Shown: positions 7,572 to 25,889 of the stretch, piece by piece
How the letters are laid out: every line of letters begins with the position of its first letter
Position numbering within the stretch: position 1 is the first letter of the stretch
Source of the DNA: a virus
Lineage: Duplodnaviria; Caudoviricetes
Virus record (IMG/VR): IMGVR_UViG_3300011402_000062
Location: 1 to 26,319 of that record
Length of the DNA: 26,319 bases
Strand: one strand, 5' to 3'
Notes under the pieces: generated by a model
What the model saw: the letters and a program-made list of their open reading frames with translations, nothing else
The model's database searches: none
What the model was told of the DNA's origin: nothing
Position numbers and translations under genes: made by a program

Positions 7572-7615
7572 AGATTGGGAGGGACAGAATATCGTCCCTC
7601 TCAATATCTTTTTTT
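7572..7615 (+). terminator. Rho-independent terminator
   Basis: ATTGGGAGGGAC-loop-GTCCCTCTCAAT followed by ATCTTTTTTT. Confidence 0.85.
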
Positions 7616-9994: not shown

Positions 9995-10023
9995 TTGACA
10001 GAAACAAGAAAGTGTGATACAAT
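9995..10023 (+). promoter_or_regulatory. Sigma70-type promoter for the recombination/replication operon
   Basis: TTGACA-17 nt-TACAAT. Confidence 0.85.
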
Positions 10024-12483: not shown

Positions 12484-12768
12484 ATGAACCTTGAAGAACA
12501 GGGAATTGTATCCACGATTGAGGAAGCTAATAGGAGATTTAACGAGCTTCTATTATTGGACCCAGAGACAGGTATGCCTCCAAAGCAAATTTGTTATGGG
12601 ATTCATTTTCCTCAAGATACTAATAAGCAATTAATCCAGACTATTTGTGATACTTTTAAGCATAGTTATCAGTTCTACTCAGTAGATGGCTTAACAGTAT
12701 TCGATATGAGGGATAAGGGTGCCACTGTTGGATACATGGTTTACCTGTTTAAGAAAAGTTTACTCTGA
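12484..12768 (+). CDS. Hypothetical protein
   Basis: 94 aa, GAGG RBS. Confidence 0.75.
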   Translation: MNLEEQGIVSTIEEANRRFNELLLLDPETGMPPKQICYGIHFPQDTNKQLIQTICDTFKHSYQFYSVDGLTVFDMRDKGATVGYMVYLFKKSLL

Positions 12769-12810: not shown

Positions 12811-12875
12811 ATGGATTCCTACGAATACACTCGGAATAAGTAGGTCGTGACAAGCACGAGGCCCGTCCATCGAGT
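12811..12875 (+). ncRNA. Unassigned structured RNA motif, copy 1 (three-way junction plus pseudoknot)
   Basis: P1 ATGGAT/GTCCAT, P2 CCTAC/GTAGG, P3 TCGTG/CACGA. Loop ACTCG pairs with 3' CGAGT. A second copy lies at 14316. Confidence 0.7.
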
Positions 12876-12885
12876 TCTTTTTGAG

Positions 12886-13207
12886 ATTTACTCTTAGTAG
12901 GGTTCTAACTGAACAGAGTAAATAGTCAGACGGATACTGACTTAAAACAAAGCAACGTCTTAATTTGTGGTGACTCGACGTTAAATAGTAACCATCGTGA
13001 CTCATAATGTTGGATACGACAAGACCAACAGGTTTATCAGATACCCATGAGTGAAATTACTGATACGTGTCTTTGCGGCGTTGGGTTCTCACGTAAAATG
13101 AACTCACCACAATTTGGGTATATTTACCCAACATTAGTAGCTGTGCCGAAAGGGAGCGAACTACTAAACAATAGTTTTCTAGCCGTTTCTATGAATCAAA
13201 AAACGGC
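12886..13207 (+). ncRNA. Array of further structured RNA elements (hairpins and two pseudoknots)
   Basis: Back-to-back stems at 12886-12923, 12924-12942, 12954-12995 (H-type pseudoknot), 13000-13065 (three-way junction plus pseudoknot), 13082-13106, 13114-13131, 13134-13167 and 13182-13207. Confidence 0.55.
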
Positions 13208-13230
13208 CTCTTTAACTTTAGGAGAAGCAA

Positions 13231-13443
13231 ATGATTGACGAGAGCGACCTGAAAAACTGGTTTTCTTATCACGCACCAAACGAAAGTCAACAGACTCGAT
13301 ATGTAGAGATTCGGGCGGCCGCATTGAGTTTAGCTCAGTGTATCTTAGCTAATACTCCTCAAAATGCAGACCAATCAGCTGCAATTCGTAAAGTCCGCGA
13401 AGCTGTAATGACTGCTAATGCAGCAATCGCTTGCGGAGAGTAA
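13231..13443 (+). CDS. Acb2/Tad1-like helical hairpin protein (putative immune-signal sponge)
   Basis: Pattern FSYHAP...Y..IR..A..LA..I....P...D.S.AIRK.REAVM.ANAAIA, recalled as typical of proteins annotated Acb2/Tad1-domain. AGGAG RBS. Confidence 0.65.
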   Translation: MIDESDLKNWFSYHAPNESQQTRYVEIRAAALSLAQCILANTPQNADQSAAIRKVREAVMTANAAIACGE

Positions 13444-13444
13444 G

Positions 13445-13819
13445 ATGAGAGTCTACATAGCCACTTCTTTCCATAACATGGAAGTTAGAGATGTAGCTAA
13501 CTTCTTAGAAGATGCAGGACATTCAATTACTTGTCCGTGGTGGAAATCAAAAGCTCCTACAGTTGAGGAAGCTCAGAAAGACATTCAAGGAATCGAAGAT
13601 TGTGATGTAGTAATTGGCTTGTTCGATAAGCCATACATCTACAAAGGAGCTATTCTTGAGCTTGGAATGGCTTATGCTTGGAATAAGCATATTCTCATCA
13701 TTGGCAACGAACTGGATAGCATGATTTTTATGCTTCTTCCTAGGTTCATCAAAGTGAAGAATCTCAAGCAAGCTCTCAAAGTTATGAAAGACAAGATTAA
13801 GCAGGATGAACCTGTTTAA
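13445..13819 (+). CDS. Nucleoside 2-deoxyribosyltransferase / dNMP N-glycosidase-like protein
   Basis: MRVYIA, DIQGIEDCDVVI and GAILELGMAYAWNKHILIIG (catalytic Tyr/Asp/Glu pattern). Start moved to ATG 13445. Confidence 0.85.
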   Translation: MRVYIATSFHNMEVRDVANFLEDAGHSITCPWWKSKAPTVEEAQKDIQGIEDCDVVIGLFDKPYIYKGAILELGMAYAWNKHILIIGNELDSMIFMLLPRFIKVKNLKQALKVMKDKIKQDEPV

Positions 13820-13859
13820 TAACCGTAGGAAAAGAAAAAGAAAAGAAAAGAGACAAAAG

Positions 13860-14240
13860 ATGAAGTGGAATGTTTCTCCGTCCGATGTGTCGCGTGGCAA
13901 GCTAATCCAGAAACCGGGTTGGTATACTCTGGAGATTGCTGCCTACAACGAAGAGCAGGCCAAGAAGGGTGACTCTACAAATGCTGTGTTTGATTTCCGG
14001 GTAATTAGTGACGAACCGGGAGCCAACGGCATTGAAATCCGGGTGTGGTTCAACGAAAAAGCTCCCGGTGTTGCAGTTCCTTTTATGGTTGCTCTCGGTG
14101 CTGAGGAAAGAGAAGATGGTTCTCTCTCAGTTGAATTCGGGAAGCATCTTGTAGGCAAGCGTGTTCAGGGCTTTATCAAGCGTGGCGAATGGGATGGAAA
14201 GCCCAAGAACGAAATCGCTGAATACGCTCCTCTGAGTTAG
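13860..14240 (+). CDS. DUF669-like single-stranded DNA-binding protein
   Basis: PGWY.LEI...E..KKGDS and LVGKRV...IK..EWDGKPKNEI..Y. Start moved to 13860, after a purine-rich leader. Confidence 0.75.
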   Translation: MKWNVSPSDVSRGKLIQKPGWYTLEIAAYNEEQAKKGDSTNAVFDFRVISDEPGANGIEIRVWFNEKAPGVAVPFMVALGAEEREDGSLSVEFGKHLVGKRVQGFIKRGEWDGKPKNEIAEYAPLS

Positions 14241-14314
14241 TTCGACTGGACTTGGTTGGTCTTGGTAGTCCTCGGCCATTAAATGCTAGAAAGAGGTACT
14301 AGCAGCCAGAACTA
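14238..14314 (+). ncRNA. Putative structured RNA (three-way junction with kissing loops)
   Basis: TAGTT..CTGG/CCAGAACTA encloses TGGTC/GGCCA and TGCTAG/CTAGCA. The loops carry complementary CCTC and GAGG. Confidence 0.4.
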
Positions 14315-14315
14315 A

Positions 14316-14381
14316 ATGGATGCCTACTGAATATACTCGGAATAAGTAGGGGCTTTTAACAGGGCTGGGAAGTCCATCGAG
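14316..14381 (+). ncRNA. Unassigned structured RNA motif, copy 2
   Basis: Same P1, P2, loop GAATAYACTCGGAATAA and 3' CGAG as copy 1. P3 is replaced by GGCTTT/AGGGCT. Confidence 0.7.
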
Positions 14382-14389
14382 CTTTTTAT

Positions 14390-14473
14390 CCGGGGTTGGT
14401 GAAATAGGTAGACACGAGAGACTTAAAATCTCTTTCTCTCAGGAGAGTGTGGGTTCGATTCCCTCACCCCGGA
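14390..14473 (+). tRNA. trnL: tRNA-Leu (anticodon TAA)
   Basis: Acceptor stem CCGGGGT/ACCCCGG, D-arm GTGAAATAGGTAGACAC, anticodon arm AGAGA-CTTAAAA-TCTCT, long variable arm, T-loop TTCGATT, discriminator A. CCA is not encoded. Confidence 0.92.
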
Positions 14474-14536
14474 CTTGGTAGGGAAAGTCGGAAGTAAACT
14501 TGTTAGAAACAACAGGCTGATTAATAGGGAGAAACA

Positions 14537-14710
14537 ATGAGAAACAGTTTTGAGACGCTCGAATATGTCCCGTACATCATGGTAGATGCAGGTGACGAAA
14601 TCGTTGACGATGAAGATGACGACGACGATGACGACACTGAAGATGACGATGATGACGACGATGATGACGATGAAGATTCCGACGAAGAAGAAAAGAAAGA
14701 CGACAAGTAA
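14537..14710 (+). CDS. Hyper-acidic poly-Asp microprotein (57 aa), not in ORF track
   Basis: AGGGAG RBS. MRNSFETLEYVPYIMVDAGDEIVDDEDDDDDDDTEDDDDDDDDDDEDSDEEEKKDDK uses mixed GAT/GAC codons and is followed by a terminator-like hairpin. Confidence 0.75.
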   Translation: MRNSFETLEYVPYIMVDAGDEIVDDEDDDDDDDTEDDDDDDDDDDEDSDEEEKKDDK

Positions 14711-19088: not shown

Positions 19089-19309
19089 TTGGAATGGTCT
19101 CTAGAATTTTTCCGGGTAAAGGCTATGGATTTATTAAGACCGAAGAAAATGATGAGTTCTTCTTCCATATGAGCGCATTGAGAGGTATAGATTGGGATAA
19201 GCTAGTAGAACTCTGTAACAACAAAGAGGGGCCAATAGTGTACTTCAAAGAAATGAAGCACAATAGAGGCCCCAGAGCTATTAACGTAGAGCTAGTTCCT
19301 AACGGCTAA
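19085..19309 (+). CDS. Cold-shock domain protein
   Basis: KGYGFI (RNP1), FFFHMS (RNP2) and GPRAINV. AAGGAG RBS. Confidence 0.9.
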   Translation: MIGMVSRIFPGKGYGFIKTEENDEFFFHMSALRGIDWDKLVELCNNKEGPIVYFKEMKHNRGPRAINVELVPNG

Positions 19310-22300
19310 ATACTGGTTTTACGAAATCCAGAATATCCTCTCTAAAGGTTTGTTTACGCTTCTTATCGTAACCAGTCAAGCCCATTACATCTTCACCGAA
19401 TGTAGAGCGTTTTCTATCTTTGTTATACACATTCAGTCCGGTAAACGATGGAAGTAAGAAGAGTAACCTCTTGAAATCTGGGTCACTACTACCAAGGTCT
19501 TTCACAGCGTCGATGAAGTTTTCTGCAAACATTGGAAGCATCGAGTTAATAGCTTCAGCAGGAATATTATACGGCTTACCTGTATAAGGATTCTCCTGCC
19601 TTACTAATTTAGCTATGAAAGCTGCCTTTGGACTGGCTTTATTCTCAAAGAAAGAGCCAATCAATTCAGTAGCAGATTGACCAAATTCACTACTATAAAG
19701 GTGATGAGTTTTACCCTTAGTATCTACAACTCTACCTGTAGCTAGTCTATATGCTAAGGTAATTGCAGAACCCATACCTGACGTAGTATCTATGATTTGG
19801 TCTTCAAACTCTACTTTACCAAAGTTTGAGGCGGCTAGGTCATAAGTAGGCTTTCCTCCTAATTGTCTCAATCCTTCCATTAAAGCAACAGAAGATACCA
19901 TCCAAGTAGCTAGACTTCTTGCCCTCTGTTTTTGAGCAAATCTCTTTTCTTTAGCCCATTCTGATGGCATGAATAACTTACCGTAGTTAAACTTCTGAGC
20001 TGTAAGTCTTGGAGACCAAACTCCTAAACGTATGGTTTCTTCAGCCTTAACAAGCCCTTCAGTTAATGAACCATGACCTGCCATTTCATTAACAATAGCA
20101 CCGATACTCTTAGCTACTTTCGGGTCTGCTAGATTATCTCCTCGTTTAATAGCAGCCTTAGCCAAAATCTCTGCATTCCTAAACTTAATGTCATTTAAGA
20201 GCGCAAGAGCACCTCTATGAAATGGAAGAACTAAAGGAGACTTCTCTAATGTAGGATTACCATAGACCTTATTATTCTTCCTTCTTCTACCCGGTCTAAA
20301 TTGGTCTAATCCCAGCAATTCTAAGTCACCAATATGAACACCCATATCTTCAGTGATAATACTCCACCAAGGACTATCATATCTAGCCTTTTGCTGTCTA
20401 TCAAACTCAGCTTGGTCAAACATAGCCTTTAGTGTCTTTAGGCGGGACTTATAGAATGAAGCATGGCCCATAGAACCACGCCCCTGATTAAAGGCAAAGG
20501 ACATATCTCCAGTTGCTTTAGCTATATCCATTGACCTCCAAGTCCACTTAGTTAATTGGGCTAGAGTCTTATTGACAAACCCTTTAATCGGTGGTGCAAG
20601 CTCTGCTCCATACTGTTGAATATGCTCCCAAGGAATACCTGAGTACATATTCATTATCTCTTTTCGATACTGCTCAGGGAACAGATTAGATAGTAGATTC
20701 CTAGGTTCAGGAGCGATATACTTTCCTGCATTTAAGTCTCGAATAGCTATTCCTGCTCTAATAGCTTTATTCTCATCCCGACCCGGACCTGTATTGTAAT
20801 GCTTATCTGCTAAATCAATAAGCTGGTCAATCAGAGTTTGAGACATCTTTAGAGGCTTAAATGTAGGTGGAGCTTCAGCAGCACCTTTCATTATATTCAA
20901 TTTTGCAAGAAGACCAGCTTCTCCAGTAGCCTCTACATTGTGCATTTCAGCTAATTTATCAGCTCTCCATTCTCTTATACGAATCTCTCTAAGAGCTTCA
21001 GCAGACATATTATCTCTAAGTCTCTGCATGAACTGTCCGAGAGGCTGTTTCTTATATTCCTCACTAATTGGAACCTTACTTATTACTTCTCTTTCACCAA
21101 CAACCTTTCCAGCTTCTTTCTCAGCACTGAATCTCTTAGATAAATCGTTGAATATCTCTTTACCCTTGCTACCTAATCTATTAAGAATAGGCTCAAGAGG
21201 TTTAAGGTCGAATTGCTCTGCTACTGGAACTTCTGGCGCTCTTGTAGGAGCAACTCTTTCTGCAGTTTCAACATTAGGAACAACAGTAAACTGTGCATCC
21301 CCACCTCTAAGCTTAGTATAAGCAGCAGCCTTTGCTTCAGCTTCTTCTAAAGTATTCTTTCCTGAGATTGGCACTCCATCATCATCAATTACATGATATG
21401 CTGCCTTCTTCAATTCATCTAAGAGTTTCCTGCCTTTTTCAGACTTAGCAAGTTTCTCATAGAAGTCTTGTAAACCACCGAAACCACTACCTATGGTTGT
21501 TCCCTTCTTTTGGGGACCTTTATAACCATCCTTCTTTCTTATAACTTCTGGTCCGTGTTTACCCTTTTGAACTATAAGCTCTTCACCATAATAGAGTTGT
21601 TTTGCATTTGGAAATTCGTCTCCTACCTTAAAGAATTGCTCAACAGTTGGGAAGTCTCCCCAAGTTAACTCACCTCTTTCCATTCTAAAGTGAGCAGCCC
21701 CACGAGCATGAACCTCATATCCAAAAGTAGGTTCGTGCATAGTATCAGGTACTTCGTGATGTTGGGTCTTCTTGAAATGCACGGTATTTTCTGGGTCAGC
21801 ATATCCGATACCAGAAGGCAGAGTCTTATCTACAACAGACTCCTTAATATCGTACATGTCATCTTCCCATTTTTTATTTAATCTATCTACATGTTCTTGA
21901 GCTGCTGCCTTATCATCAAACTGCCTTGTTACTCTGTTATTCCATCTCTTATCAACTACGTTATAGCTGATTCCTCGATTCTCTTCTGGAATCTTACTTA
22001 TTCTTTTTTCTTCACGAAGTGCTTTTCCAGACCTAGCAGCTTTCTTAATAGCCTCTAGAGTCTTTTCTCCAACTTTTTTACCTACTCTACTACCAGATAC
22101 CTTATCAGCTATCTTTTCATAGAATGGCTGAATACTACCGAAGGCTCCACCTATAGTAGTTCCTCTACCTTCAGCTTTTTGAGCAGCATCCCAAGCTTCT
22201 TTACGAAGCTCCATGAAGATGTCTTGAATCTTTGATTTAGAACCTACAATATTACGTAGGTCTCCTTGAGCATCATTTGCTTTATTCCAAGTATCCCAAG

Positions 22301-25300
22301 CTGCCTCTACTTTACCTTCTTTAGCAAGTTGAATTGCCTTTCTAAAATTGCTAAGAGCACCTTCAACAATTCCTATATTTTCTGCTCGATATTTTGGGTC
22401 ACGACCTTGCTTAAATTCACCTTCTCTTACATGATGCTCTGAGTATGTCTTTGCATCATAATCATGCTCAATTTGCTCTCGTTCATTAGTTATTTTACGA
22501 GAGGCACGTTCCTGAGCGGCCGCCTTAGCAGCATCTTCTCTTTCCTTGAAGTAATCGGCAGGAGTTTTTTCTCTTGTAGCTCCCCATTCTCGACCTAATT
22601 TACCTGTATAGCCAAATCTTTTACCGATATCAGGAATAGAGAGAACGCTCTTAAGATGACGTAATTGCCTTGTTAGATAAATAGCATTTTCATAACTTGC
22701 TTCATACTTAGCTATATCTGCTGCATTTCCTCTATGTCTAGCATCTTTTAAGAGATTATCAAGTTTACTTTCAGCTGCTCCTGCTGCATTGAGTTCAGCA
22801 TCTAATTGAGAGTAATCATAATCTTCAAGAGGTGTTCCTATTCCACTATCCTTCTTATACGCCTCTGTAAAGGTAGGCTTATCAGAAGTAGATTTAAATT
22901 CAACAGGCTTCTCAACAGAAATCTGAGATTCTCGTCCAGATACCTTAGATTCTCTTTCATCAATAGCAGCTAAGAATCTACCCTTCCAAGTCTCTCCTGC
23001 TTTTAATGGGTCATTTCTGAGAATAGGAGGCATAGCTGCTCTAAATTCAGAGTCAGCAGCGCCTTCTAAATCATCTACTATTTCAGCCCATCTTCTAGCA
23101 GTTGCATCCTTTAATTGTGGACCATACTTCTCATAGAGGTCTTGAAGTCCCCCAAGGCCACTACCTAAAGTGGTTCCTCTGCTCTGTTTATGGGCATTTT
23201 CTTGATTTTCAATAAGACGCACAACCCGGCCGCGCCAAGTCTCTCCCGGCTTTAATCCTTCCTTCTTTGCAAAGGAAATAATCCTTCGATAAGCTTCATC
23301 AGGAGAGCCTAATTTATCATGCTTAGCTACCTGTTCAGCTAATGTTCTAGCTGTTGGGTCTTGGAAACTATCAGGAGAAGGAATATGTCCCCTACCCTTA
23401 GGTGGAGGAACATTGGCTTTTCTAGCAACAGTAGGAGGAGCAGGAACAGATGGTCTATCAACCATGCTCCTAGGCTCTACTGGATATTCCTCTGCTAAAG
23501 CAGCCTTCTTCTCATCAGACCTTACTTTCCTATCAGCTAATCTTTCCTTATATCGAGCAGCCCTTTGTTCAGGAGTTAAAAATGGCTCAAGTTGAGGAGC
23601 TACATGAGAAGTGCCTGTCTCATTATCCATTACTTGATAACGAGCAGCTCCAGCACCTAGATTCTCATTGATTCCTCTTGCATATATACGTGCTTCTGCA
23701 AGAGAAGGTCGGCCTGCTATCGGGCGGCCGGTTTCAACGTCGATAATATGGAATCGAGCTTTACTTAACTTATCAGCTAGTTTCTTTCCATATTCAGTCT
23801 CACGAAGCTTCTCATAGAAATCTTGGAGATTGAACATTCCTACATTAGTGCCCTTCTTATTAGCTTCTTCAGCGGCTAATGCAGCGTCAATTCTACCTTG
23901 AGCAGTAGTGGTACTAGCTCTTTCCTTCTTTTTAGCTTCTGCTGCTGCTTTTCTTTCTTCTCTTAATGCAGCGGCTTGAGCGTCTCTCTTTGCCTTATCA
24001 AGAATCCTAACCCTTTCAAGGTCTTTAAGTCCTCGTAATACTCCCTCGTCACCTTCAATATGAGGATATCTTGCAGCAGCTTTGGCTCTATCTACTGCTG
24101 AGATATTCTGAAGAATTGTCTCATTTTCAGCAGCTTCCTTAATGGCTCTTTCAGACCTAGAAACCTCTTCTTCTAGAATCTGCTTATCTAGTCTTTCAAG
24201 AATAGCAGTTCTAGCAGGAGAATCAGGTTGAGCTGCAATCTTATCTCTTAATGCAGCAGCTTCAACTGCGGTTCTTTGTCTTGGTGCTCTTTCTGGAGTT
24301 ACTTCTGGAACACTACCTTCCGGATATCTAACCGGAGTAGGAGCTGCTTCTGGTCTTTCTATAAGTCCTTCTGGTAACGGCCAATTATCACCAACAACAG
24401 TTTTACCAGCTCTCTGACCAGATGCTCTACGGAATACAGGTCTTCCTTCTTTATCAAGAACTGGTCTTGGTGGAACAGTATGTGGAGTTGCAGGTGTAGG
24501 AGTTGGAGGCGCACCTCTATCTGGAGGTAATATTCCTCCGGGTGTTGCCTCAAATACTCCGGGCCTTCTTCCTCTTGGAGTAGAATCAAACGGAGTAGGT
24601 CTCATTTCTCCAGATAAGAAATCTCCGGGACCAAAAGGTAACTCTGGTTGAATTCCGGGTAATTCAGAGAAATTGATAGTCTGAGGAGGCTGCCAATTAC
24701 GCTTTCTAACAGATGCCTCCATCTTGGTATTAAGAATTTCAGCATCAAGACTAGCAACTTTATCCCACTGTCCAGCTCTTGCAGCTTCTGACTTCTGCAT
24801 CTCAAATTCGTGAATTCTAGCTTGAGATTCAGCATCAATTCCTGCGTGTGCCCTAGCCTTCTGTTCTGGAATAGTTCCAGCATCTAGTGGAGTTCCAGTT
24901 CTTGGCTGTGACCAAGGATGTTCTTGGAAAGTTCTTGGAAGTGGAGAAGCTACTTCATCAAAAGGTAGAGGAACATCTGTAGGAGTTCTCGGACCTTCTG
25001 GAAGCATACGAGAAGGATTAGTTTCTACGGCGGCCGGGTCAATTCCCCGAACTCCACGAATTACAGGAGGCGGTTCTGCAAATGGTAATGGAGCTGGTCT
25101 AATTGGGCGTGCTCCAGCTTTACCAATTGCTCCTGCTGTTCTAATAGCTTTAGGAGCCAAAGCCATAGCAGTTGGAACAGTTAAATCTCCAGCTATAGCT
25201 CTAGCTCCACGCCAACTTGGGTCTTTTTGGAATCCCTTAACGTCGTAATCTAATGTATCGTAATCTCCACCCATGAATCCAGTAGCGAATCTACCGACAT

Positions 25301-25889
25301 TCTCTGCTAACCCACTGCTAAACTTAGCAAATTCAGGAATTAATGGTGTCCCTTCTGGAGACATCATTCTATCTGTACGAGCAAGTTCCTTAAATGGCTC
25401 TATTGCTCCTTGACCTATTTCTTGACGAGCTTTTATAATCTCAGGAGTATTACCCTGTGGAAATGCACCAGCAATAAAAATATTCTTAGCAAAATGTCCT
25501 AATCCCTCTAATCCGGGCTGAAGCCTAGAAAAGTATCCAGCATTAGGGTCTTCAACTTTAGGTTCCTCAGGTGGAGGAGCCGGCATTCTAGTTCTTTCTG
25601 ATTTAGGAATATCACTATAGTAAGTTTTTTCCATTTCTGGACCAAAAGTACCATAGCGAGTGCCTTCAGAACGTCTACCTTCTAAAGCTGCAACAGGCCC
25701 ACCAGCCTTAAAAGGCTCTCCTTTTTGAATATCAGAGGGGGTCTCTTTAGTATCTAATGTAGACAGATGAGAGATAATCTTCCTAAAATCCTCATCTGTA
25801 GGTTCAGCTTCATCATTAGTCCAGTCAACCTTGTATTCCTTACCAGTCTTAGGACTCTTGAGCGTATAAGTTCTTTTCTGTGGAGGCAT
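19299..25889 (-). CDS. Giant probable internal virion / DNA-ejection protein (2196 aa) with internal repeats
   Basis: Uninterrupted ORF on the opposite (late) strand. Pro-rich N-terminal part, charged helical middle, and a C-terminal region like phage large ejection proteins. No catalytic motif was recognised. Confidence 0.75.
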   Translation of the reverse strand: MPPQKRTYTLKSPKTGKEYKVDWTNDEAEPTDEDFRKIISHLSTLDTKETPSDIQKGEPFKAGGPVAALEGRRSEGTRYGTFGPEMEKTYYSDIPKSERTRMPAPPPEEPKVEDPNAGYFSRLQPGLEGLGHFAKNIFIAGAFPQGNTPEIIKARQEIGQGAIEPFKELARTDRMMSPEGTPLIPEFAKFSSGLAENVGRFATGFMGGDYDTLDYDVKGFQKDPSWRGARAIAGDLTVPTAMALAPKAIRTAGAIGKAGARPIRPAPLPFAEPPPVIRGVRGIDPAAVETNPSRMLPEGPRTPTDVPLPFDEVASPLPRTFQEHPWSQPRTGTPLDAGTIPEQKARAHAGIDAESQARIHEFEMQKSEAARAGQWDKVASLDAEILNTKMEASVRKRNWQPPQTINFSELPGIQPELPFGPGDFLSGEMRPTPFDSTPRGRRPGVFEATPGGILPPDRGAPPTPTPATPHTVPPRPVLDKEGRPVFRRASGQRAGKTVVGDNWPLPEGLIERPEAAPTPVRYPEGSVPEVTPERAPRQRTAVEAAALRDKIAAQPDSPARTAILERLDKQILEEEVSRSERAIKEAAENETILQNISAVDRAKAAARYPHIEGDEGVLRGLKDLERVRILDKAKRDAQAAALREERKAAAEAKKKERASTTTAQGRIDAALAAEEANKKGTNVGMFNLQDFYEKLRETEYGKKLADKLSKARFHIIDVETGRPIAGRPSLAEARIYARGINENLGAGAARYQVMDNETGTSHVAPQLEPFLTPEQRAARYKERLADRKVRSDEKKAALAEEYPVEPRSMVDRPSVPAPPTVARKANVPPPKGRGHIPSPDSFQDPTARTLAEQVAKHDKLGSPDEAYRRIISFAKKEGLKPGETWRGRVVRLIENQENAHKQSRGTTLGSGLGGLQDLYEKYGPQLKDATARRWAEIVDDLEGAADSEFRAAMPPILRNDPLKAGETWKGRFLAAIDERESKVSGRESQISVEKPVEFKSTSDKPTFTEAYKKDSGIGTPLEDYDYSQLDAELNAAGAAESKLDNLLKDARHRGNAADIAKYEASYENAIYLTRQLRHLKSVLSIPDIGKRFGYTGKLGREWGATREKTPADYFKEREDAAKAAAQERASRKITNEREQIEHDYDAKTYSEHHVREGEFKQGRDPKYRAENIGIVEGALSNFRKAIQLAKEGKVEAAWDTWNKANDAQGDLRNIVGSKSKIQDIFMELRKEAWDAAQKAEGRGTTIGGAFGSIQPFYEKIADKVSGSRVGKKVGEKTLEAIKKAARSGKALREEKRISKIPEENRGISYNVVDKRWNNRVTRQFDDKAAAQEHVDRLNKKWEDDMYDIKESVVDKTLPSGIGYADPENTVHFKKTQHHEVPDTMHEPTFGYEVHARGAAHFRMERGELTWGDFPTVEQFFKVGDEFPNAKQLYYGEELIVQKGKHGPEVIRKKDGYKGPQKKGTTIGSGFGGLQDFYEKLAKSEKGRKLLDELKKAAYHVIDDDGVPISGKNTLEEAEAKAAAYTKLRGGDAQFTVVPNVETAERVAPTRAPEVPVAEQFDLKPLEPILNRLGSKGKEIFNDLSKRFSAEKEAGKVVGEREVISKVPISEEYKKQPLGQFMQRLRDNMSAEALREIRIREWRADKLAEMHNVEATGEAGLLAKLNIMKGAAEAPPTFKPLKMSQTLIDQLIDLADKHYNTGPGRDENKAIRAGIAIRDLNAGKYIAPEPRNLLSNLFPEQYRKEIMNMYSGIPWEHIQQYGAELAPPIKGFVNKTLAQLTKWTWRSMDIAKATGDMSFAFNQGRGSMGHASFYKSRLKTLKAMFDQAEFDRQQKARYDSPWWSIITEDMGVHIGDLELLGLDQFRPGRRRKNNKVYGNPTLEKSPLVLPFHRGALALLNDIKFRNAEILAKAAIKRGDNLADPKVAKSIGAIVNEMAGHGSLTEGLVKAEETIRLGVWSPRLTAQKFNYGKLFMPSEWAKEKRFAQKQRARSLATWMVSSVALMEGLRQLGGKPTYDLAASNFGKVEFEDQIIDTTSGMGSAITLAYRLATGRVVDTKGKTHHLYSSEFGQSATELIGSFFENKASPKAAFIAKLVRQENPYTGKPYNIPAEAINSMLPMFAENFIDAVKDLGSSDPDFKRLLFLLPSFTGLNVYNKDRKRSTFGEDVMGLTGYDKKRKQTFREDILDFVKPVFSR

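Follow-up and report, generated by a model that had tools for sequence, protein, structure and literature searches.

The 26,319-nucleotide stretch of viral DNA analysed here (the window, 26.3 kb) contains two copies of a compact RNA motif that, to judge by its covariation among relatives, is a real, uncatalogued and well-covarying phage RNA family. We give a probability of about one half to the reading that it is a tertiary-folded 3'-end element, acting as a leaky terminator and/or an exonuclease barrier within a long transcript. We regard it as most probably a new structural kind of 3'-end element.

The phage genes in the window encode an SNF2 helicase, a PD-(D/E)XK nuclease, a Sak4-like ATPase, an Acb2/Tad1 protein, a nucleoside deoxyribosyltransferase, UDG-PolA, a primase and a cold-shock protein. 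A near-identical complete record (48.4 kb, with terminal repeats) bears the same two motif copies and none besides. In the cultured phages searched, the motif was unmatched and the Sak4-like protein had only distant matches (identity <30%). Both copies lie in a single co-oriented gene run, which likely starts at a sigma-70-type promoter (Table). A scan for such promoters found none on the + strand adjoining copy 1 or copy 2. Since the scan gave 21 sites in total against 28.6 expected by chance, only the two 11/12 sites stand out. Elsewhere, a 2196-aa ORF on the minus strand (19299-25889) was unmatched in both Pfam and PHROG. The whole window has 18 CGGCCG sites (1.8 expected) and a single GATC (95 expected), a bias that may be a clue to host methylation or restriction systems.

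Table. Positions of the motif copies and neighbouring features in the window
Feature	Position	Strand	Remarks
Sigma-70-type promoter match	9995..10023	+	11/12, extended TG
Motif copy 1, type I	12811..12875	+	P1, P2, 15-nt core loop, P3, 5-bp pseudoknot
Copy 1 pairing	P1 12811-12816/12865-12870; P2 12818-12822/12840-12844; P3 12845-12849/12855-12859	+	
Copy 1 pseudoknot	12829-12833 with 12871-12875	+	loop strand with tail
U-rich tail of copy 1	12876..12883	+	6 U in 8 nt
Hairpin array with two predicted pseudoknots	12887..13207	+	pseudoknots 12955-12995 and 13065-13106; between copy 1 and Acb2/Tad1 gene
Acb2/Tad1 hairpin-domain gene	13231..13443	+	anti-defence sponge family; PF24729, E 7.5e-12
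DUF669-like gene	13860..14240	+	putative single-strand DNA-binding protein
Motif copy 2, type I	14316..14382	+	fifth pseudoknot pair A.C
Copy 2 pairing	P1 14316-14321/14372-14377; P2 14323-14327/14346-14350; P3 14351-14356/14361-14366	+	
Copy 2 pseudoknot	14335-14339 with 14378-14382	+	loop strand with tail
U-rich tail of copy 2	14383..14389	+	7 nt; also tRNA leader
tRNA-Leu(UAA)	14390..14474	+	

An earlier note on this DNA, made from the letters alone, had described two copies of an unknown fold, and re-reading confirmed both of them. They share a 22-nt core block with 21/22 bases in common (95% identity; BLAST E 7e-8). Run across the window, a covariance model with the copies in its training set picked out these two alone, at 62-63 bits, the runner-up scoring 12.9. 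A search of Rfam 15 with E up to 5 placed no family over copy 1 or copy 2, and the motif was also unmatched in the 10 homolog loci searched, in line with the note's view that it is uncatalogued. When folding energy was compared with that of shuffles, neither copy alone did better (z +0.58 for copy 1, -0.43 for copy 2), and the P1 model energies were -13.1 and -10.9 kcal/mol. The case for structure is therefore built on covariation in relatives and not on energy.

A search for relatives gathered 47 distinct versions, every one on a contig of viral or metagenome origin. Homologs beside Sak4 relatives were recovered with a profile built from the two copies, which did not require the core. Scans with sequence patterns over viral, metagenome and genome collections turned up 82 distinct matches, 32 of which passed a P1 plus P2 filter. 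The type I set of 37 consists of these 32, three loci added by eye (L063, L074 and L083), the pseudoknot variant L288, and L441. Two further types came to light behind genes for single-strand DNA-binding proteins (SSB). Type II (n=7) has a G-rich loop strand and a C-rich tail; its members are the second copy of L017, both copies of L464, L505, L513, L438 and L021. Type III (n=3; L419, L443 and L448) has no pseudoknot, a P1 of 10-12 bp and a closed inner hairpin. In GTDB bacterial and archaeal genomes, 27 pattern matches were found, none with the structure.

As a control, the descriptor gave one match, with score 15, in 686 kb of shuffled sequence. The model R2 recovered L513, which was absent from its training set, at E 2.4e-6. 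It missed L438, L021 and all three type III versions, which rest on the descriptor and inspection and are thus less certain. The invariance of the type I core is partly built in, since most versions were collected with core-requiring patterns; the fair test lies in the synteny-based and relaxed searches, and within type I these brought only the changes in L288 and L441. Freeing the pseudoknot in the pattern scan (complete run, 56 loci) yielded one variant, L288, and with the AAUAC and GAAU strands freed, none of 41 loci was convincing as a new member. Type I versions measure 58-86 nt in 35/36. Tandem copies occur between the SSB gene and a tRNA at L017:7705-7877 (types I and II) and at L464:894-1074 on the minus strand (both type II). 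Each record has 0-2 copies. Among 11 records of at least 90% completeness, a set assembled in part for having the motif, 7 carry it; among 16 complete relatives chosen by SSB only, 1 does.

In the print literature, the motif strings were not found, with only unrelated 9-mer matches, and the topic literature searched holds no description of the fold. The motif was unmatched in the one supplementary file of PMC10085705 that was searched. PMC10690425 lists 8,495 unnamed viral RNA candidates; the motif was unmatched in those of its supplements that were searched, but may be among the candidates.

The covariation bears out the earlier suggestion of a conserved RNA fold. In 33 type I versions aligned by sequence only, 90.3% of the cells pair, against 81.0% for shuffles; slid controls gave 27-45%. 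In this alignment, the third pair of P1 changes from G-C to A-U in 6 sequences, both sides change in all six pairs of P2, and the last pseudoknot pair is G-C in 20, G-U in 7 and A-U in 5, the A.C of copy 2 being found in that copy alone. When types I and II were combined (24 rows), double changes appeared in 14/16 pairs, including 4/5 of the pseudoknot, counted per sequence and not per event. RNAalifold, supplied with no structure, chose the pseudoknot helix as the consensus. The pseudoknot had been read as a 4-nt CTCG/CGAG pairing; the pairing is real, and its extent is 5 bp, RCUCG/CGAGY.

As these alignments indicate, the fixed core is P1 (GGA/UCC), P2, the 15-nt AAUA…GAAU loop and the pseudoknot, while P3 is decoration. 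The stretch from P2 to P1 holds a hairpin next to P2, a hairpin next to P1, two hairpins or none. Because relatives have a different P3 and junction, or lack them, the fold is not a fixed three-way junction, as it had been drawn, and neither P3 nor the 5-nt junction starting with GG, which the note took as conserved, is common to the family. Invariant in the 24 rows are one G-C pair of P1, AAUA, the first G-C pair of the pseudoknot, and the second A and the U of GAAU; the unpaired invariant bases are thus A and U, and none is G or C. The pseudoknot strand directly abuts P1 with no linker and is followed by the A/U-rich tail. P1 and the pseudoknot may stack into a single helix of 9-10 bp ending at the tail. 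In the three type III variants, a P1 of 10-12 bp replaces the pseudoknot, which points to the length of the helix before the tail as the need.

Within the core, the AAUA and GAAU strands may form an A-rich non-canonical, loop E-like module that would dock on the GGA/UCC of P1 and lock the fold. The loop E/sarcin-ricin module has an AGUA/GAA strand register, in which the AAUA and GAA strands of the motif fall, and the one variable base of the motif (L441) falls at the variable position of the module. Unlike the module, the motif has A in place of the bulged G and lacks the GAGA tetraloop. Loop E/sarcin-ricin and UAA/GAN modules are in any case building blocks and not families.

Three other readings of the pairing were set aside. 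In a test for a helix joining the 5' and 3' tails, own pairs did slightly better than crossed ones (p 0.013-0.023, with relatedness uncontrolled), and this helix was not accepted. A CsrA-type AYGGAY loop was ruled out, the GGA being paired and covarying. On the minus strand, the G-U pairs of P1 and P3 become mismatches, and 18/19 top descriptor matches lie on the coding strand.

In relatives, the most frequent upstream neighbour of the motif is the DUF669-like gene, a family that we take to encode SSBs. Pfam DUF669 was found in 9/20 aligned members (best E 4.3e-6), the window protein itself lying below the cut-off at E 0.012; ESM Atlas clusters are named DUF669 at 0.96, and the PDB gave one weak match, PrgE (E 0.4). 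Other upstream genes are HNH or unannotated. The downstream genes vary among acidic ORFs, Acb2, HNH, cold-shock protein, terminase and tRNA. To judge from these neighbours, the motif tracks its upstream and not its downstream gene. The motif starts at most 15 nt from the upstream stop in 19/35 type I versions with an upstream ORF (median 12, by crude ORF calls). As a counterpoint, both window copies lie farther from the stop than most versions, copy 1 being 42 nt downstream of the stop of ORF 12484-12768 and copy 2 being 75 nt downstream of the DUF669 stop.

The first recognisable gene downstream of copy 1 is the Acb2/Tad1 gene. In the hairpin array before it, the first stem of the predicted pseudoknot 12955-12995 shows compensatory changes against L012:5470-5520. 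The second, 13065-13106, is the minimal form of another pseudoknot motif (a stem, an A-rich linker and a GGGUU/AACCC-type pairing) that recurs behind SSB and other genes (L386, L387, L395, L400, L403, L418, L423 and L434); it bears a likeness to the 5' half of pistol and was unmatched in Rfam. Behind the tRNA, positions 14537-14710 encode a 57-aa Asp/Glu-rich ORF. Many relatives have a comparable acidic ORF after the SSB slot; these ORFs are possibly DNA mimics or detached SSB tails.

A role linked to tRNA, which the adjacency of copy 2 had suggested, was rejected. A tRNA stands immediately behind the motif in only 4/36 type I versions, with the motif always on its 5' side, and related tRNA-Leu genes mostly lie behind other genes with no motif present. 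At L011 a tail similar to that of copy 2 precedes the tRNA, but a hairpin stands there instead of the motif. The tRNA link is incidental.

Among 57 distinct slots behind the SSB stop, a contiguous stem of at least 12 bp occurs in 24, as compared to 4/57 in-gene controls and 0.7% of shuffles. A looser count of 8-bp stems separates less (slot 49/57, in-gene 37/57), and a folding-energy comparison did not show the slot to exceed the GC-richer gene body in structure (medians -17.7 and -19.5 kcal/mol, respectively). The tails of 27 stems of at least 11 bp have a mean of 4.0 U in 8 nt and all begin with A or U; those of the motif have a mean of 4.4 U in 8 nt and begin with A or U in 31/36, the first base usually being A. 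A is common also at positions -2 (32/36) and -1 (30/36) of type I. A U-tract of at least 5 is present in 17/36 motif tails, both window copies among them, and in 0/36 of the upstream 12 nt.

A natural swap is seen between L036, which has the motif, and L032, which has a 33-nt hairpin element. The SSB proteins are 97.9% identical, the flanks are near-identical, the breakpoints are the two ends of the motif, and the tail is retained in both. The earlier note had both copies ending in a U-tract; the tails are indeed U-rich, but, on this comparison, the tail belongs to the genomic slot and not to the fold. In a quick SSB tree (22 motif rows of 84, motif-bearing loci being over-sampled), motif presence needs 16 changes, at least 5 of them forced by well-supported branches.

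Other elements occupy the same slot. At least four more complex folds were seen (L410, L450, L453; L384, L425, L445; L393; L397; L447; L461), and a scan of 40 SSB loci against Rfam returned tRNA only. An element of 30-35 nt, GGUUCUU followed by a hairpin with GUUCU/AGAAC and a CC..AAA loop, stands behind the SSB stop at L013:11490, L022:10546, L027:11347, L030:9757, L031:6223 and L037:11319; it could be a tiny pseudoknot with its U-rich strand in a triple helix on the stem. The loops of plain hairpins (GACCU, GGCC etc.) are complementary to a CCA-ending stretch before the ribosome site of the acidic-protein gene (L388, L394, L398, L406, L414, L416, L421, L427, L432, L455 and others), a possible long-range pseudoknot. 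Terminator-like hairpins with the identical loop AGAAUAUC lie behind different genes at 7574-7605 of the window and in L452.

Given that relatives carry a plain hairpin in the slot after the gene, the likely role of the motif is to terminate or protect the message upstream of it, and not to process tRNA. As a portable compact fold just 3' of a stop codon, it would form the 3' end of the upstream message, as the hairpin does in relatives. On the weak U-tail, RNA polymerase would terminate in a fraction of passes, and exonucleases working 3'-to-5' from the tail end would stall at the P1/pseudoknot helix. A downstream cut, for example by RNase P at the tRNA behind copy 2, could offer an alternative entry for exonucleases, with the same stalling. 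The outcome would be more SSB message than downstream message. Of the functions that the earlier note had offered, a nuclease-blocking element fits best, though its place would be where the upstream gene ends. Self-cleavage and ligand binding, also on its list, are less probable and gave no positive sign.

Intrinsic terminators and intercistronic 3' stabiliser hairpins, which occupy the motif's slot in relatives, resemble it in having a helix just after the stop and a U-rich tail, and PMC13714241 describes terminator hairpins as shielding 3' ends from exonucleases. Unlike them, the motif has a conserved tertiary core, and its pre-tail helix is a pseudoknot closed from a distant loop; no GC-rich hairpin stands directly before the tail, which follows P1 and the pseudoknot in types I and II and a continuous stem in type III only. 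Only 17/36 tails have a U-tract that reaches 5, the cut-off in PMC13714241, and most tails open with A, which makes the motif at best a leaky terminator. It is thus not a canonical terminator, though its position and tail suggest that it likely works like one. The shared slot is not proof of a shared job, since some of the slot-mates are complex folds. Moreover, the strict conservation of the core is unexplained, because a plain hairpin would do the same job, and this leaves room for readings as a ribozyme or a switch.

Such an active device, either a new self-cleaving ribozyme class or an aptamer with the final helix as terminator stem, is a possibility that we hold with odds well short of even. 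The note's statement that the motif is not HDV, hammerhead, twister or pistol held in all feature tests, and theta can be added. Twister has a UAA cleavage strand before the helix, a catalytic G right after it and a second pseudoknot from a junction GC. The motif resembles twister type P1 (RF03160 clan) in that a hairpin loop pairs with a strand 3' of the closing helix, in its optional extra hairpin and in its intergenic position in phages, but it has one pseudoknot and not two and was unmatched in Rfam; UAA precedes P1 in 13/36, C and not G follows the helix in 36/36, and the junction GC is found in 0/36. The hammerhead core, CUGANGA and GAAA, is present in 1/36 for each part. Pistol (RF02679) was unmatched over the window copies and over the motif in the 10 homolog loci, in a search that can see ribozymes, because it found a true pistol in L513 (L513:1208-1271, G037; 53 bits), one small gene upstream of the type II copy. 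Theta, or HDV-like, ribozymes are likewise small pseudoknotted phage RNAs able to adjoin tRNA, and PMC10879173 gives HDV-like RNAs a nested double pseudoknot with the catalytic C first in J4/2. In the motif, covariation supports only P1, P2 and one pseudoknot, with no invariant unpaired C; the same source proposes that theta cuts tRNA 3' trailers, whereas the motif lies 5' of tRNA and touches it in 4/36. A new class cutting the polycistronic message between genes is nevertheless conceivable, if unlikely: the size of 58-86 nt, the pseudoknot and the conserved unpaired bases fit the criteria in PMC10085705, ribozyme processing of polycistronic transcripts near phage genes is proposed in PMC6765202, the L513 copy ends the small gene that the pistol precedes, and A is common at -2 and -1. 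Against it, every invariant unpaired base of the 24-row alignment is A or U and none is G or C, whereas small ribozymes of known classes rely mostly on a G base or a C acid for catalysis (PMC6765202), hairpins replace the fold in relatives, the L513 pistol is the sole Rfam ribozyme in the relatives scanned, and ten similar candidates failed to cleave according to PMC10085705. In the aptamer form, which we consider unlikely and slightly less probable than cleavage, a small molecule or protein docked in the AAUA/GAAU-P1 core would lock the pseudoknot and turn on termination or protection, setting ending after the SSB gene against run-on into anti-defence, tRNA and replication genes. Its marginal stability, no better than shuffles, yet strictly kept core would suit such a switch, as would the Acb2/Tad1 gene being the next recognisable gene in 4/36, the cold-shock-domain protein encoded by the phage (the L062 copy precedes such a gene) and an ATG 8-9 nt behind the pseudoknot strand in several versions. 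However, the downstream genes share no theme, the motif holds no leader position before common-theme genes with an expression platform, no promoter adjoins the window copies, no competing anti-terminator helix came to light, a GGAG overlapping the pseudoknot strand occurs in 0/36 (no Shine-Dalgarno overlap), and complete relatives lack the motif (4/11 records at least 90% complete; 15/16 in the SSB-chosen set).

Two further readings place the effect on downstream RNA. A block to 5'-to-3' decay by RNase J, shielding the RNA behind it, is improbable. In the xrRNAs of Tombusviridae and Luteoviridae, as in the motif, the 3' tail pairs with the apical loop of a stem, and PMC8374639 reports that xrRNAs halt RNase J1; tandem copies of the motif exist (L017, L464). 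Unlike these plant-virus RNAs, the motif comes from a bacterial virus, and it encloses 30-58 nt, hairpins counted and judged from sequence and not from a 3D model, against a ring of 15-16 nt in PMC8374639. A ring is impossible in the pseudoknot-free variants, and the motif tracks the upstream gene. The put RNAs are compact folds that act on RNA polymerase. A put-like RNA that binds the polymerase and aids read-through of downstream pauses or terminators would fit a compact fold that is directly followed by U-rich sequence in a long operon, but terminator-like hairpins take the motif's place in relatives, the promoter is far away and many complete relatives lack the motif, leaving this reading very improbable.

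With the 3'-end element as the preferred reading, the motif adds to the uncatalogued RNA folds one for which nature offers unusually clear experiments: subtypes differ outright in the sequence of their pseudoknot, others have a longer stem in its place, and between nearly identical phages a hairpin takes the place of the entire module. Since the same slot holds several other uncatalogued folds, it offers a ready test panel. Cleavage or ligand sensing would make the motif a ribozyme or riboswitch of a new class. If its role is to end or protect messages, terminator hairpins have a tertiary-folded substitute, which terminator finders that look for hairpins would overlook, and the fold may provide compact 3' caps for RNA engineering.
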